A DNA stretch of 64,000 bases from a phage. Position numbers and translations under genes: made by a program. The stretch lies in the sequence record PZ540767.1. One strand, given 5' to 3'. Shown piece by piece: positions 2,083-7,280 of this stretch (position 1 is the first letter of the stretch; each line of letters starts with the position of its first letter). Below the pieces are notes generated by a model. That model was not told the DNA's origin. It searched no databases and worked only from the letters and a program-made list of their open reading frames with translations.

Positions 2083-3687
2083 ATGAGTAATATTTTTGAC
2101 GTTGAACAGCCAAAGAAAACGGTAATAGATTGGCTAAACGGGGTGTCTTATGCAGAAGATCCTACGTATAAGCCGAGTCTGTTTGCTTTGCAGTTCGTTA
2201 ACTTTATCAAGCTGGTCAATGGTGGTCAGGGCGAGGAGCATAAGACTCCGGTGCTTCACTACAAAATGCTGGACACTGTTGTATCGGGTGATCGGCGTAT
2301 TGCTAATATGGTACACCGTGGTGCTGCTAAAACTACTGTGATGGCTGAATACCTATTCTTGTACTTAGGTGTGTTTGGTAGTCTGCCTGAGTTCGGACGT
2401 ATTGAACTGGCCCTGTATGTTTCTGACTCCGTGGATAACGGTGTGAAGAACATGCGTAAGAACTTAGAATTCCGTTGGGAAAACTCAGAATTCCTGAAGC
2501 GAATGATCCCTAAAGCCAAGTTTACGGATATTCGTTGGGAGTTTACCAACCTGGAAGGTCAAACCACAGTAATCAAAGGCTATGGTGCTAAGACGGGTGT
2601 TCGTGGTACGAAAGAGATGGGTAAACGTCCTAAGCTGGCGATCCTTGATGACCTGGTATCGGATGAGGATGCACGTTCACCTACCATCATTGCTGCTATC
2701 GAAGATACGGTATACAAGGCAGTAGAGTACGCATTGCACCCATCCAATAACATGATGATCTGGTCTGGTACTCCCTTTAACGCAGGTGACCCCCTGTATA
2801 AAGCAGTAGAGTCTGGAGCATGGACTGTCAACGTCTACCCAGTGTGTGAGATGTTCCCCTGTGAAGAATCAGAGTTCAGGGGCAGCTGGCCTGATCGTTT
2901 TGATTATCGTTATGTCAAACAGCAGTATGAGAAAGCATTACTGGGTGGCAAGATTGCCATGTTTAACCAGGAACTGATGCTTAAGATCATGTCTGATGAA
3001 GATCGCCTGATCGCTGATGGGGATATTCGTTACTACTCTCGTGCTGCCCTGTTGAAGAACAAGAGCAACTACAACTTCTACATCACCACTGACTTTGCCA
3101 CCAGTGACAAGCAGTCTGCTGACTTCTCTGTCATCTCTGTGTGGGCACTGAACAATAATGGTGACTGGTTCTACGTGGACGGTATCTGTGAACGCCAGCA
3201 CATGGGGCAAAATATCAGAGACTTGTTCCGTCTGGTTTCTCAGTACAACCCGCAGGAAGTTGGTATTGAAGTTACTGGTCAGCAATCTGGTTTCATTCCA
3301 TGGATTATTGAACAGCAGATCGATAAGAACGTATTCTTTAATCTGGCTTCCAGTAACAACTCAAGCCAGCCTGGTATTCGTCCTACCACTGATAAGTTAC
3401 AACGCTTTAACGTAGTGGTGCCCTGGTTTAAAGCTGGGAAGATGTATTTCCCTTCAGAGCTGAGAACCAGTAAAGCAATGATCGAGATGATGGAAGAACT
3501 TCGCCTTGCTTCATTGGGTGGTTTCAAATCCAAACACGATGATGCCATCGATACCATTTCTCAGCTGGCACTGTTGAAAACCTTTAAGCCAGGAACAGCT
3601 GCACCTGTATACTACAACGAAGAGAAAGACGTGTGGTACGAGCCAGACGTTGAAGTAGATACTCGACTCAGTAGCTATCTGGTTTAA
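2083..3687 (+). CDS. terL: terminase large subunit
   Basis: 534 aa; P-loop-like HRGAAKTT and ILDDLVSDEDA ATPase motifs in N-terminal half, acidic nuclease-type residues in C-terminal half; GGAGAAAGG RBS. Confidence 0.85.
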   Translation: MSNIFDVEQPKKTVIDWLNGVSYAEDPTYKPSLFALQFVNFIKLVNGGQGEEHKTPVLHYKMLDTVVSGDRRIANMVHRGAAKTTVMAEYLFLYLGVFGSLPEFGRIELALYVSDSVDNGVKNMRKNLEFRWENSEFLKRMIPKAKFTDIRWEFTNLEGQTTVIKGYGAKTGVRGTKEMGKRPKLAILDDLVSDEDARSPTIIAAIEDTVYKAVEYALHPSNNMMIWSGTPFNAGDPLYKAVESGAWTVNVYPVCEMFPCEESEFRGSWPDRFDYRYVKQQYEKALLGGKIAMFNQELMLKIMSDEDRLIADGDIRYYSRAALLKNKSNYNFYITTDFATSDKQSADFSVISVWALNNNGDWFYVDGICERQHMGQNIRDLFRLVSQYNPQEVGIEVTGQQSGFIPWIIEQQIDKNVFFNLASSNNSSQPGIRPTTDKLQRFNVVVPWFKAGKMYFPSELRTSKAMIEMMEELRLASLGGFKSKHDDAIDTISQLALLKTFKPGTAAPVYYNEEKDVWYEPDVEVDTRLSSYLV

Positions 3688-3696
3688 GGATCCTGT

Positions 3697-4578
3697 ATGA
3701 AACTGAAATTATCAGATGTGTTAGAGAACCTGGCAGCGGGTGAGTTATCTCACCTCTCCTTGTTTGAGAATGGGGCGGATATCCCATTTGAAACTTTTAA
3801 TAAACGACTGTTGCCCATTATCAATGCTGGTTTAACTGATATCCATATGCGTTTCTTTGTGAAACAGAAAGAGGTATGGCTCAAGCATTGTTGTGGTGAT
3901 ACTAAACTGGTACTGGATAGAAAGAATGCAGCAAGTGCTCACAGACTTCGTGGCAATGCTTTTATTCAGGATTGTGATGATCCCTTTAAGGATGATGTGG
4001 TAGAGATCCTCTCTATCTATAACCGGGATGGGCAACAATACCCGCTGAACATGGACACAGACCACACCCAGCCGAGAGGCTGTGGGTGTGGGCGTGGACA
4101 TGGATGCAACTGTACACCACCAAACTCATGGGCACGATATGACAGCACATTGGACTACCCGGCAACCATCACCACCAGAACCCCCTATGGCAGCTATGGT
4201 AGTTGTGGGCCTGGCTTGCCTGTGCTGTATACTCCTGCTGTTAATGTGATCAGACTGCCGGAGAATATGCCTTCTGGTTTCATGAAGGTATTCTATAAAG
4301 CTGCACCTGCTCGTATTCCTAAGCTGGAGGATAACGGGGTAACTACCTATGATCGTATCGATCTGGATTTACCCTTTACTTATCTGGATGCACTGGTTTA
4401 CTACATCTCATCCCGTCTGACTGCACCTACCAATGGTGGGCTGCAAGCAGGGACTAATGAGACAACCCAGTACTACAATAAGTATCTGTCTGCTTGTGCA
4501 GTGCTTACTGATCAAGGGGTGGATGTTTCTACTCAGGGATCTGGTTACAGCAGGTTTGCTAAGTCAGACTTCAGATAA
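3697..4578 (+). CDS. hypothetical protein with Cys/Gly/His-rich motif
   Basis: 293 aa; AAGGA RBS; contains HTQPRGCGCGRGHGCNC; followed by terminator. Confidence 0.6.
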   Translation: MKLKLSDVLENLAAGELSHLSLFENGADIPFETFNKRLLPIINAGLTDIHMRFFVKQKEVWLKHCCGDTKLVLDRKNAASAHRLRGNAFIQDCDDPFKDDVVEILSIYNRDGQQYPLNMDTDHTQPRGCGCGRGHGCNCTPPNSWARYDSTLDYPATITTRTPYGSYGSCGPGLPVLYTPAVNVIRLPENMPSGFMKVFYKAAPARIPKLEDNGVTTYDRIDLDLPFTYLDALVYYISSRLTAPTNGGLQAGTNETTQYYNKYLSACAVLTDQGVDVSTQGSGYSRFAKSDFR

Positions 4579-4583
4579 AAATA

Positions 4584-4610
4584 AAGCCCCTTAACCGGGG
4601 CTTTTCTTTA
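4584..4610. terminator. rho-independent terminator, likely bidirectional
   Basis: AGCCCC-TTAACC-GGGGCT hairpin followed by TTTCTTT on plus and preceded by A-run; lies between convergent genes 3697..4578 and 4608..5027. Confidence 0.7.
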
Positions 4611-5027
4611 GTACACCATATCAGGAGTATATTCCAGGAACCGTGTGACAATGGTTCGTTTAGTGTACGTCTTGCCCTTCATATTAGCCAAAGCCTCCTG
4701 CAAAGCCTGGCTTTCTAACTCGGACACTTTAATGTAGTTGGGGGTTTCCTTTTCCCGAGGGAACTCATGTTCCACCTTGTGCCCACTAATTACACCATTA
4801 GCTTCTACATAAAGTGAGACAGCGATGCACCCATTACCTTTCTTAAGTGCTTCAATAACAAGAGCACTAGGGTTACGTTTGGTAAAAGGATCTGCAAACT
4901 CATGGGCTAAGAATTGATCAGCTTTTTGCAGCATGTGGTGCATATCAGCAGATTCAGCCATCACTGCTTGGGCAGCATTGAGAATTCGTTCACGAACAGG
5001 CCCATCATTCATTTCTGTAATTTTCAT
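4608..5027 (-). CDS. hypothetical protein (139 aa)
   Basis: ATG at 5027 overlaps the stop of the upstream gene (ATGA); last gene of a three-gene minus-strand operon. Confidence 0.55.
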   Translation of the reverse strand: MKITEMNDGPVRERILNAAQAVMAESADMHHMLQKADQFLAHEFADPFTKRNPSALVIEALKKGNGCIAVSLYVEANGVISGHKVEHEFPREKETPNYIKVSELESQALQEALANMKGKTYTKRTIVTRFLEYTPDMVY

Positions 5028-5335
5028 TTCTGGTTTTCCTCGAACATTTTCTGCTTCAGGAGATAACCTTCTTTCTCCCAGATCTTTTCGAAGGCATTAT
5101 CATAGGCTTCCTTCCGCCCGATAGCTTCATTGTAACGGGAAGGATCCACACAGGCAGAAGTGCCTTCAACCTTGAAACCATTTTCCATGATGATGATACA
5201 GATGGTTACCAGGTTGAGTTCTGCGAGATCACGATCAGTGTATCCACCATTGCTGTTTTTAATGGCCTCACCAGCATTGATGAAGTACACACCACGGATC
5301 TTGGCTTCGATACTGGATTTACTTACGGTAGTCAT
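5024..5335 (-). CDS. hypothetical protein (103 aa)
   Basis: ATGA overlaps with both neighbours; no recognisable motif. Confidence 0.55.
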   Translation of the reverse strand: MTTVSKSSIEAKIRGVYFINAGEAIKNSNGGYTDRDLAELNLVTICIIIMENGFKVEGTSACVDPSRYNEAIGRKEAYDNAFEKIWEKEGYLLKQKMFEENQK

Positions 5336-5580
5336 ATGGATTCCTTTAAATAAATTTCGGGAAGATACTCTACAAAATATCCTAACTTTTGTTTAGTTGA
5401 GGTATCTGTACCTTTTACTAATCTTTCTACTTCAGTCCTTAGATGAGATTCAATCGCCCAAACATCAAGGTCTTCTAAAGAAACACCTTCAGGTGGTCTG
5501 TGAAGAATACTATCTACAGTGATGTAGCCATTGTGAGCAAACACCTTAATGACACTGAAGCCTTGTTTATCTGTATGCAT
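5332..5580 (-). CDS. hypothetical protein (82 aa)
   Basis: ATG at 5580 preceded by GGAGTAAACCA RBS; first gene of the three-gene operon. Confidence 0.5.
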   Translation of the reverse strand: MHTDKQGFSVIKVFAHNGYITVDSILHRPPEGVSLEDLDVWAIESHLRTEVERLVKGTDTSTKQKLGYFVEYLPEIYLKESI

Positions 5581-5596
5581 TGGTTTACTCCAGCTA

Positions 5597-5621
5597 AAGA
5601 AAAGCCCCTCCGAAGAGGGGC
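5597..5621 (-). terminator. rho-independent terminator downstream of tRNA cluster
   Basis: GCCCCTC-CGAA-GAGGGGC hairpin; A-run on plus strand gives a T-tract after the hairpin on the minus strand. Confidence 0.55.
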
Positions 5622-5798
5622 ATCCTAAGCATTTTACGTCTGCTAGACGAGGCAGGCGGTAATAACTAAGTATCTCTTACGAGTAAAGGTTGATAGCCAT
5701 ACTTAGTATTACTAATAACAGATTAGGTTACGGATCATAAACCTTGGTATGACAATTCCATAATCTGTTACACGGTCTTCCGGTAGCGAGTCGGAAGT

Positions 5799-5875
5799 TG
5801 GCTGGAGCATCTGGATTCGAACCAGAGAATGTCGGTATCAAAGACCGATGCCTTAACCTACTTGGCTATGCTCCA
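5799..5875 (-). tRNA. tRNA-Gln (anticodon TTG)
   Basis: Cloverleaf folded by eye on reverse complement: acceptor TGGAGCA/TGCTCCA, anticodon loop CTTTGAT, T-loop TTCGAAT, encoded CCA. Confidence 0.7.
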
Positions 5876-5878
5876 ATT

Positions 5879-5968
5879 TGGTGGAAGGTGAAGGATTCGA
5901 ACCTTCGGGCGCATCTCTGCACCTCCTGATTTCAAGTCAGGTACAATCGGCCTCTCTGACAACCTTCC
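5879..5968 (-). tRNA. tRNA-Ser (anticodon TGA), long variable arm
   Basis: Acceptor GGAAGGT/ACCTTCC, anticodon stem CCTGA/TCAGG with loop CTTGAAA, long variable arm, T-loop TTCGAAT, encoded CCA. Confidence 0.7.
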
Positions 5969-5974
5969 TAAATT

Positions 5975-6061
5975 TGGTGGGGGAAGATGGAGTTGAACCA
6001 CCCGAGCTTCTTAGGCAACAGATTTACAGTCTGTCCCGCTACCTCTACGGTCTATTCCCCC
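5975..6061 (-). tRNA. tRNA-Tyr (anticodon GTA), long variable arm
   Basis: Acceptor GGGGGAA/TTCCCCC, anticodon stem ACAGA/TCTGT with loop CTGTAAA, T-loop TTCAACT, encoded CCA. Confidence 0.6.
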
Positions 6062-6066
6062 GAATT

Positions 6067-6143
6067 TGGTCACCACGTAAGGATTCGAACCTTAGACACC
6101 TTGCTCCCAAAGCAAGTGCTCTACCAGACTGAGCTACGCAGTG
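6067..6143 (-). tRNA. tRNA-Pro (anticodon TGG)
   Basis: D-arm TAGCTCAGTCTGGTAGAGC, anticodon stem CTTGC/GCAAG with loop TTTGGGA, T-loop TTCGAAT, encoded CCA. Confidence 0.7.
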
Positions 6144-6209
6144 TAATTAGCCCTCTACTGTCGCCATCCAGTAATCCAGTTGGAATCGAACCAACACAGA
6201 GGGGTTATT

Positions 6210-6284
6210 TGGCGATGGGACTGGGACTCGAACCCAGCTGTCATAGATTAACAGTCTACCGCTTCACCGTTTAGCTATCCCATC
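6210..6284 (-). tRNA. tRNA-Asn (anticodon GTT)
   Basis: Acceptor GATGGGA/TCCCATC, anticodon loop CTGTTAA, T-arm CTGGG-TTCGAGT-CCCAG, encoded CCA. Confidence 0.6.
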
Positions 6285-6579
6285 TTATTAATTAAGACAC
6301 TCTGTTATCTGCCGATCCGTGTGGCAGTACGGAGTGATAACACATTGAGATTAGGGTATGAACCTGTTCAATGTTGAGTGCCCTAATTAATAAGCCCCTG
6401 TAAAGTAGGGGCTACTCCGAGTTCGATAACCTGGTTCTGGTTCCAGGGTACTCCAGCTTTTAGACCTTTGTACATAACAGGACACTGCCTGTGATCTGAA
6501 ATACCTTGTTGGGGTATGGCAACAGAATCAACATCGCAACACGCTTCTTCTGTTCTAAATACACTCGTGAATGTATTTA

Positions 6580-6605
6580 AAAAAGAAGCCCTAGCGAACT
6601 AGGGC
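6580..6605 (-). terminator. rho-independent terminator after 6660..7280
   Basis: GCCCTAG-CGAA-CTAGGGC hairpin with T-tract on the minus strand (AAAAAGAA on plus). Confidence 0.55.
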
Positions 6606-6659
6606 TAATGCAGGAATCCAATCCGAATCTTCGCTGGATTTAGTTATGCCATAGCTAAC

Positions 6660-7280
6660 TTAGTTAGACAAGTGCATTTGATTAATGATTTTAGCAACAG
6701 ACTGATATTTAGCCGCTTGCTCAGGATCATAGTCAGGAAACAGACTGGAAAAGTCAGGCTCCTTGAAGGTGATCATGTTCTTGAGGAACTTACCTTCTGG
6801 GTACTCCTTACCTTCAATGACAGTGGTTTTAGCTACTTTGATGTAAGCACGAGGGTATTCACCTTCAATGGTGAGTTCATCATCACCAAAGCCCATAGCC
6901 CAGTAGTAAGACAGGGCATCTTCCACTTCATCTTCATGACGAATGAACTTAGTCATATTAGATTCATGAACCAGGTCATAGATCTTATCAGCATCGAAGC
7001 CAGCAACATGAGCCAGACCATAAGCTACGGTAAGAATGTCACCAATAGCATCAGCCAGTTGGATCATGTTTACTGGACCAACATCAGCATTCGTTAGGCG
7101 TTTCTGCAAATGTACCTGTACCATCATGTCAGGATTACTGGCTTCAATGGCTTCAACTGATTCTTCAAGGCACAGCTTTGCCTGTTTTCTGATAGCATTG
7201 ACATTAGGATTGGAGAGATCGCCTTTAGGGTTACCAAAAGCAATATTAAGTTCAGCTACTTTTTCGGCATTGGACTTCAT
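6660..7280 (-). CDS. MazG-like nucleoside triphosphate pyrophosphohydrolase
   Basis: 206 aa; EESVEAIEA (EExxE) and IGDILTVAYGLA motifs resemble MazG-type all-alpha NTP-PPase; AAGAGG RBS. Confidence 0.55.
   Translation of the reverse strand: MKSNAEKVAELNIAFGNPKGDLSNPNVNAIRKQAKLCLEESVEAIEASNPDMMVQVHLQKRLTNADVGPVNMIQLADAIGDILTVAYGLAHVAGFDADKIYDLVHESNMTKFIRHEDEVEDALSYYWAMGFGDDELTIEGEYPRAYIKVAKTTVIEGKEYPEGKFLKNMITFKEPDFSSLFPDYDPEQAAKYQSVAKIINQMHLSN

Follow-up and report, generated by a model that had tools for sequence, protein, structure and literature searches.

A tRNA gene array in an N4-like Klebsiella phage carries a conserved non-tRNA cassette also found in tRNA arrays of unrelated phages

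Two questions are raised by a short array of tRNA genes in the genome of a Klebsiella phage (sequence record PZ540767.1; the 64,000 nt analyzed are hereafter called the window): why the phage keeps these tRNAs, and what the 66-nt element is that separates two of them. A preliminary description had listed five tRNA genes with encoded CCA ends between positions 5799 and 6284 on the minus strand, and had proposed that a T-arm-like fragment in the largest gap might be the relic of a sixth. We conclude that the array is very probably a polycistronic tRNA operon of the kind typical of N4-like enterobacterial phages (Efbeekayvirus/Cbunavirus), feeding the host tRNA pool, in which the 66-nt element (here E66; minus strand, 6144 to 6209, between tRNA-Asn and tRNA-Pro) occupies the slot of tRNA-Asp as a separate cassette that is not tRNA-Asp. 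The window belongs to a phage of this group (Schitoviridae, Efbeekayvirus), and its tRNA region is 93 to 97% identical to those of the Efbeekayvirus phages P19-618, pKP-BM327, GADU21, FBKp27 and HS106. Since relatives, including those of the sister genus Cbunavirus, carry an annotated array at the equivalent place, the cluster itself is already known, and is one more variant of an array found in near-identical genomes.

In the window, ARAGORN called five tRNA genes and no more, each on the minus strand and with the interval and anticodon first described, and the Rfam tRNA model RF00005 (gathering score of 29 bits) independently matched all five (37.8 to 65.3 bits; E = 2e-4 to 6e-12). The array begins with tRNA-Asn (GTT; 6210 to 6284; 59.5 bits), followed by tRNA-Pro (TGG; 6067 to 6143; 62.8 bits), tRNA-Tyr (GTA; 5975 to 6061; 37.8 bits), tRNA-Ser (TGA; 5879 to 5968; 50.5 bits) and, as the last member, tRNA-Gln (TTG; 5799 to 5875; 65.3 bits). 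Coordinates, anticodons, strand, CCA ends and phage context in the preliminary description were thus all correct. Each gene folds into a canonical cloverleaf with CCA encoded at its 3′ end; the gaps between genes, from tRNA-Gln upward, are 3, 6, 5 and 66 nt. Identity to the Escherichia coli isoacceptors ranges from 65 to 83% (tRNA-Gln: 83% to glnU; tRNA-Asn: 69% to asnT, with the same anticodon loop). All anticodon loops have 7 nt with U33 and a purine at position 37 (CUGUUAA, UUUGGGA, CUGUAAA, CUUGAAA and CUUUGAU, in array order), and they are the same as in the E. coli isoacceptors at all positions but one (C32 instead of U32 in tRNA-Gln). Identity elements are also kept (Gln: U1-A72 and G73; Pro: C1-G72 and A73; Tyr and Ser: long variable arm; Asn: G73), with two irregularities: tRNA-Ser has A73 (G73 in E. 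coli), and the D-stem of tRNA-Tyr is weak. Two of the genes are fully conserved in named relatives: tRNA-Asn is identical in FBKp27 and HS106, and tRNA-Tyr is identical to that of HS106 at 87 of 87 positions. The tRNA-Pro gene, by comparison, carries six substitutions relative to all relatives, HS106 included, and because these form three private compensatory pairs (7-67, 29-43 and 51-65), they are direct evidence of selection on the cloverleaf. Their pattern suggests that the tRNA-Pro cassette was acquired from a lineage more distant than the source of the remaining array.

To place the array among its relatives, 23 related arrays (window included) were compared. A backbone order of Asn-Asp-Pro-Tyr-Ser(TGA)-Gln-Ser(GGA) was never violated, and each unit was present or absent independently of the others, with arrays ranging from Asn-Gln only to all seven. 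tRNA-Asp (GTC) was present between Asn and Pro in 12 of the 23, and a conserved leader motif was found at 22 loci. The arrays of FBKp27, GADU21, P19-618 and HS106 share slot, strand, leader and backbone order with the window, and their Asn, Tyr, Ser and Gln genes differ from it by zero to two mismatches; only the HS106 array also has E66 at the same junction. The order in the window, Asn-E66-Pro-Tyr-Ser-Gln combined with the leader cassette L90 (described below) and a long trailer, was found in none of the other 22. As judged from these alignments, the array is shown to be a mosaic of cassettes independently present or absent on a fixed backbone order. Such patchy tRNA content among close relatives is easier to reconcile with strain-specific selection (e.g., counter-defense) or with near-neutral gain and loss than with a fixed need in translation. 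Two database records in the comparison deserve mention. In Pectobacterium phage phiA41 (loci L094 and L234), the leader and L90 are intact, no tRNA was called downstream by ARAGORN, and a pseudo “tRNA-OTHER” is the sole annotation there; apparently, the tRNAs of this array were lost and its leader RNAs kept. The record of Enterobacter phage SonariX (L095; PQ898399.1; 248,734 bp, labeled “partial genome”) includes an entire N4-like block, from the portal and MazG-like genes to the leader and an Asn-Asp-Tyr-Gln array, and is more than three times the size of related N4-like genomes (∼76 kb), so it may be a chimeric or concatenated assembly.

The T-arm-like fragment noticed in the largest gap is real (minus strand, 6179 to 6195; GTTGG-TTCGATT-CCAAC), with a 5-bp stem and a 7-nt loop that fits the T-loop consensus. 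In the fold that we propose for E66, the 5′ strand of a 7-bp outer stem (6197 to 6203, pairing with 6151 to 6157) precedes this hairpin, and 21 unpaired nucleotides (6158 to 6178), conserved as strongly as the stems, lie between the hairpin and the 3′ strand. E66 was 100% identical in HS106, and homologues were found in Enterobacter phage EspM4VN (Ackermannviridae, Agtrevirus; 82% identity; 3 nt upstream of tRNA-Ser[GCT]) and in L007, a viral contig of 72 kb with Salmonella phages TR2 and FSL SP-058 as relatives (∼85% identity; between tRNA-Tyr and tRNA-Ser[GCT]). The element always lies inside a tRNA array, between two tRNAs or tRNA-like units and 3 to 7 nt from the next tRNA, and is unannotated in every record that carries it. 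Compensatory double changes occur in 4 of the 12 proposed pairs (outer stem and T-arm-like hairpin; three distinct sequences), and of the ∼12 substitutions that separate the window copy from that of EspM4VN, 8 fall in these four pairs (counted on the three-sequence alignment). Across the alignment, 94% of cells were paired, versus 42 to 61% in slid controls. An alternative minimum free energy fold with one long hairpin reached a z-score of only −1.8, and its inner helix was broken in two of three homologues; the model of outer stem plus T-arm was therefore preferred. A covariance model of E66 returned the same four loci (window, HS106, EspM4VN and L007) in 1.26 Mb, and no further copies were found by pattern scans of viral contigs, metagenomes and bacterial genomes (the last with zero matches), phage BLAST or nhmmer. 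Weak covariance-model matches at L066, L012 and L035 had neither tRNA context nor a matching fold and were dismissed, and no Rfam family matched E66 at gathering thresholds. Taken together, the distribution and the paired changes are suggestive of a discrete cassette, horizontally shared among the tRNA arrays of unrelated phages and under selection for its RNA fold.

Is E66 then what the preliminary description proposed, a decayed sixth tRNA? As a functionless, rearranged remnant of tRNA-Asp or another tRNA, it would sit where one might look for it, exactly in the slot that holds tRNA-Asp in 12 of 23 related arrays; its T-arm is perfect, and the next 7 nt can be aligned to the acceptor 3′ strands of real tRNAs; moreover, it is rare and dispensable. 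However, neither ARAGORN nor RF00005 (at E ≤ 10) called a tRNA in the gap, and alignment with MAFFT to the tRNA-Asp genes of FBKp27, GADU21 and BM327-1.2 gave no conserved columns across the slot. Against 110 real tRNAs, the best local alignments covered the T-arm and ∼7 nt only, and were equalled by 21 of 60 shuffled sequences, so that likeness outside the T-arm does not exceed that of controls. Decay from tRNA-Asp was rejected on these three results. In addition, the same 61-nt unit is 82 to 85% conserved in three unrelated phage lineages and has changed in four compensatory pairs, which is the opposite of decay. The proposal of a decayed sixth tRNA is therefore not supported as stated, and a tRNA pseudogene of any origin is very unlikely, although part of E66 may be tRNA derived. 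A second explanation holds that E66 and the other non-tRNA cassettes of related arrays act purely in cis, as processing “punctuation” or stabilizers: a tRNA-like minihelix would attract RNase P or keep 3′ exonucleases out, so that the adjacent tRNAs mature properly. RNase P recognizes the acceptor/T-arm minihelix, which the outer stem and T-arm-like hairpin of E66 resemble; the spacing of E66 from its neighbors and the NCCA ends of many sister cassettes are also in keeping with a role at processing junctions. Yet a pure structural spacer would not require an unpaired 21-nt segment to be conserved as well as the stems, and most related arrays have an Asn-Pro or Asp-Pro junction with a spacer of only 5 to 7 nt, which indicates that no cis element is needed for processing there. 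We regard a purely cis-acting role as unlikely.

Our preferred guess is that E66 is a small RNA that mimics tRNA or is related to tRNA processing. More speculatively, it may imitate an acceptor/T-arm minihelix, or bind tRNA 3′ ends through its conserved UGG-containing segment: in the single-stranded CUGGAUGGYGA, UGGYGA is complementary to tRNA 3′ ends of the form UCRCCA. A broader version of this idea would have the tRNA arrays of enterobacterial phages serve as exchange platforms for tRNA-sized structured RNAs (E66, L90 and the cassettes of relatives), which would pass horizontally among unrelated phages and, in trans, affect the host tRNA system, with E66 as a tRNA mimic or tRNA-binding RNA; on this reading E66 could decoy or block tRNA-targeting defense nucleases or modulate tRNA processing. 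As a whole, this broader proposal is a long shot.

Known systems offer partial parallels, the nearest to E66 and its sister cassettes being in the tRNA operon of phage T4, which encodes two stable RNAs that are not tRNAs (species 1 and 2; rnaC and rnaD), co-transcribed with the tRNAs and released by tRNA processing. Like these, E66 is encoded in a phage tRNA operon, between or after tRNAs; unlike them, it is shorter and has a T-arm-like hairpin, with no detectable sequence similarity, and phage-database searches with E66 returned no T4-like phages. A further parallel lies in tRNA-like processing signals, among them RNase P minihelix substrates, mascRNA and plant mitochondrial t-elements. E66 shares with them a closing stem and a T-arm-like hairpin without D or anticodon arms, located at a processing junction. 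In E66, however, the hairpin comes after the 5′ strand of the closing stem, not before its 3′ strand as the T-arm of a tRNA does, and E66 lacks RCCA. Rfam matches in the window to YrlA (RF02553; partial, overlapping tRNA-Pro; 22 bits against a threshold of 69) and to mascRNA (on tRNA-Asn; 16.9 against 42.5 bits) were both far below threshold.

More non-tRNA cassettes, with lengths of 73, 80, 82, 90, 121/122 and 155 nt, occur in related arrays. In many of them, NCCA follows a closing stem, and a canonical T-arm is present in some. A closed RNA of ∼115 nt, in which an 8-bp stem encloses four internal hairpins, was found at two different junctions in different N4-like genera (Asp|121|Pro in L222 and L233; Tyr|122|Gln in L225 and L227); its stems covary, it is not in Rfam, and it is followed by ACCA in L222 and by CC plus diverged sequence in L233, L225 and L227. 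A tRNA-like unit of 155 nt (L004, ∼1988 to 2142; L006, ∼1742 to 1896; L222, at Tyr|155|Ser) combines an acceptor stem of seven perfect pairs (TACAGAT/ATCTGTA) with a canonical T-arm (GTAGG-TTCGAAC-CCTAC), discriminator A and CCA, but holds ∼75 extra nucleotides inside; it was missed by ARAGORN and Rfam. Cassettes of tRNA size with NCCA ends, all missed by tRNA finders, are present in L232 (Tyr|80|Ser), in L095 and L226 (Tyr|90|Gln) and in L001 (Ser|73|Gln; 1847 to 1919); one of these three resembles a tRNA without a D-arm; its GCA loop is Cys-like and its T-arm canonical. The tRNA region of EspM4VN (L005) includes long unannotated stretches (∼1010 to 1310, 1970 to 2225, 2312 to 2506 and 2660 to 3000) at the ends of which a T-arm is followed by an acceptor-like 3′ strand and CCAAAT (e.g., GCGGGAG...CTCCCGC-T-CCA at 2421 to 2504), which suggests further noncanonical tRNA-like units in this Ackermannviridae array. 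Directly after tRNA-Ser (GCT) on the minus strand of L007 (∼3015 to 3080), a long perfect hairpin, GGAGAAATAGTAGT...ACTATTATTTCTCC, is followed by GCCA, forming a minihelix with a tRNA-like 3′ end. No Rfam family matched the cassettes at gathering thresholds in the window or eight related loci, no sharing of these other cassettes with unrelated phages was found among the loci compared, and no earlier description of non-tRNA cassettes in phage tRNA arrays was found in the literature.

By analogy with established tRNA processing in E. coli, the array would yield a single transcript; RNase P would cleave it at the 5′ ends of the tRNAs, while RNase E or exonucleases would act in the A/U-rich spacers after each CCA (in the window array, this tract is always AAT or AATT). 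E66 would be co-transcribed and freed as an RNA of ∼60 nt as the flanking tRNA-Asn and tRNA-Pro mature. During infection, the phage tRNAs may join the host pool, where they would aid expression of the AT-richer phage genes (through codons AAT, CAA, TCA/TCT, CCT/CCA and TAT) and might buffer the phage against host systems that deplete particular tRNAs. For such buffering there is a precedent in an identical tRNA-Tyr acting against retron-Eco7 (PMC11555353).

Several findings weigh against the reading of the array as a tRNA operon that feeds the host pool, with E66 as a separate cassette. No promoter for the array was identified, and no sigma-70-like site was found in the leader (the literature offered no usable consensus for N4 middle promoters). 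E66 has no encoded CCA, is present in only 2 of 23 related arrays (and is thus dispensable), and has no complementary target elsewhere in the window within three mismatches; a role as an antisense regulator of a phage gene was dropped on this last ground. Its covariation is thin, coming from three distinct sequences and effectively one deep branch. On the side of codon supply, the largest codon excesses of the phage (GCT and ACT, for Ala and Thr) are served by no phage tRNA, the match of the tRNA set to codon demand compared with random sets of five tRNA species gave a permutation P of ≈0.07, and the reference was a set of enterobacterial proxies rather than Klebsiella pneumoniae.

These last points bear on why the phage keeps its tRNAs, for which the preliminary description had offered two roles, compensation of codon usage and replacement of host tRNAs cleaved by nucleases. 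Codon usage was compared between 19,384 phage codons and highly expressed genes of E. coli plus 12 other Enterobacteriaceae loci, used as proxies in place of K. pneumoniae. Codons read by the array's tRNAs were enriched in the phage (AAT, 3.5-fold; CAA, 3.0-fold; TCA, 3.8-fold; CCT, 2.6-fold; TAT, 2.3-fold; GAT, 1.7-fold). Given the permutation result and the unserved top codons, codon compensation is compatible with the data without being compelling: enrichment of the five cognate codons (2.3- to 3.8-fold) speaks for it, but the set is not significantly better than random. That the set serves codon compensation only, in an AT-rich phage of a GC-rich host and with no part for defense evasion, would accord with the GC content of the phage (44 to 45%), with that enrichment and with host-like anticodon loops free of evasion-type mutations. 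It sits poorly with the permutation test, with the lack of tRNAs for the Ala and Thr codons in highest demand, and with close relatives that differ little in sequence yet carry anywhere from two to seven of these tRNAs; the action of an identical tRNA-Tyr against retron-Eco7 (PMC11555353) is a further objection. Codon supply as the sole reason is in our view somewhat unlikely.

The alternative is that the set is kept mainly as counter-defense, refilling tRNAs depleted by host nucleases such as PtuAB of retron-Eco7, which acts on tRNA-Tyr. The patchy presence and absence of tRNAs in near-identical phages fits strain-specific arms races, and Asn, Asp and Tyr in the backbone belong to the Q34 (GUN-anticodon) tRNAs, four in all, which are the class targeted by colicin E5. 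There is also a direct experiment with the identical tRNA: Azam et al. (2024; PMC11555353) reported that HS106 tRNA-Tyr, expressed in E. coli, rescues T5-like phages from retron-Eco7, whose effector PtuAB depletes host tRNA-Tyr. That assay was heterologous (E. coli, plasmid, SP15 promoter) rather than in Klebsiella, the rescue depended on expression level, and E. coli tRNA-Tyr was also effective under a strong promoter (PMC11555353). The effect is therefore one of supply and not of a nuclease-resistant variant, in agreement with the host-like anticodon loops of the window tRNAs, which give no sign of evasion by loop mutation. Nor is any defense system known to target Pro-UGG or Ser-UGA specifically. 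Replacement of cleaved tRNAs thus has experimental backing for tRNA-Tyr, while changes of the evasion type are absent from the anticodon loops. T5-like phages resemble the window in that an excess of tRNA-Tyr (GTA) rescues infection when PtuAB depletes the host tRNA (PMC11555353), but T5 has ∼20 or more tRNAs in a region of ∼8 kb, compared with five in <500 nt in the window. Counter-defense as the main reason is possible, if short of probable. We consider codon supply and counter-defense to be both live, and mutually compatible.

Upstream of the tRNAs, the leader contains further structured units on the minus strand. L90 (6292 to 6386), directly upstream of tRNA-Asn, is predicted to form a three-way junction with an 11-bp closing stem and two hairpins. 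Aligned across Efbeekayvirus and Cbunavirus (12 distinct versions), L90 showed double changes in 4 of 25 predicted pairs (e.g., columns 48-81, with UA in six, AU in five and CG in one). It is cleanly absent from P19-618, HS106 and viral contigs L222, L228 and L233, which makes it another cassette. The leader unit L1 (6389 to 6493) is conserved across genera, with a near-invariant core of 43 nt in Efbeekayvirus and Cbunavirus (6414 to 6456) and two covarying helices (three pairs with double changes); it ends in a terminator-like hairpin (6393 to 6413) that was listed by the terminator scan and is followed by TTATTAATTA. L1 could be a small RNA, or an attenuator governing read-through into the tRNAs. 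Neither L90 nor L1 matched an Rfam family, and both, like E66, appear to be undescribed so far. The start of the leader, just past the MazG terminator, is marked by a hairpin followed by TTTAGAA (6552 to 6578), with a conserved, covarying stem in seven phages, and is a candidate region for the start of transcription. A role for this motif as a recurrent phage promoter was dropped, as it is unique in the window and a repeat search gave no relevant result.

Downstream, a structured trailer (minus strand, 5640 to 5797) comprises four hairpins (5777 to 5797, 5715 to 5771, 5659 to 5712 and 5640 to 5655), with a fold z-score of −3.65 and none of 200 shuffled sequences as stable. GADU21 and P19-618 were the only relatives with the full trailer; in the others, the two central hairpins are missing or tRNA-Ser (GGA) takes their place. 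An intrinsic-terminator-like hairpin with a T-run follows on the same strand (5604 to 5621; seven pairs, six of them G-C; TTTTCTTT), immediately before an open reading frame at 5332 to 5580, so that terminator-like hairpins bracket the array on both sides, the other being the MazG terminator (6587 to 6606). In the genome at large, late and virion genes lie on the plus strand (1244 to 29198), including a virion RNA polymerase of 3,560 amino acids, and early and middle genes lie on the minus strand (29419 to 63510). The tRNAs are part of a small minus-strand island (4608 to 7280) embedded in the late region and are encoded opposite to the late genes; the MazG-like pyrophosphatase and portal genes lie on one side of them and a virion structural gene on the other. 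The island also encodes the MazG-like pyrophosphatase, a protein of the N4 gp49 family and two proteins without an assigned role; no tRNA repair or modification genes were found among the neighbors of the array there. A terminator-like hairpin at 4583 to 4604, scored on both strands, borders the island toward the plus-strand virion structural gene (3697 to 4578).

The tRNA cluster by itself adds little, its variants being already annotated in sequenced Klebsiella phages, and the interest of the locus rests on the cassettes; E66 is common to two unrelated phage families besides Efbeekayvirus. Related phages with few other differences, whose sets of these tRNAs range from two to seven members in an unchanging order, also provide a natural experiment for weighing codon supply against counter-defense, one of relevance to the choice of therapeutic Klebsiella phages. 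If the cassettes are functional RNAs, they would be small and easily deletable test objects in HS106, a phage in laboratory use, and would revive a question now fifty years old, that of the stable RNAs other than tRNAs in phage tRNA operons.

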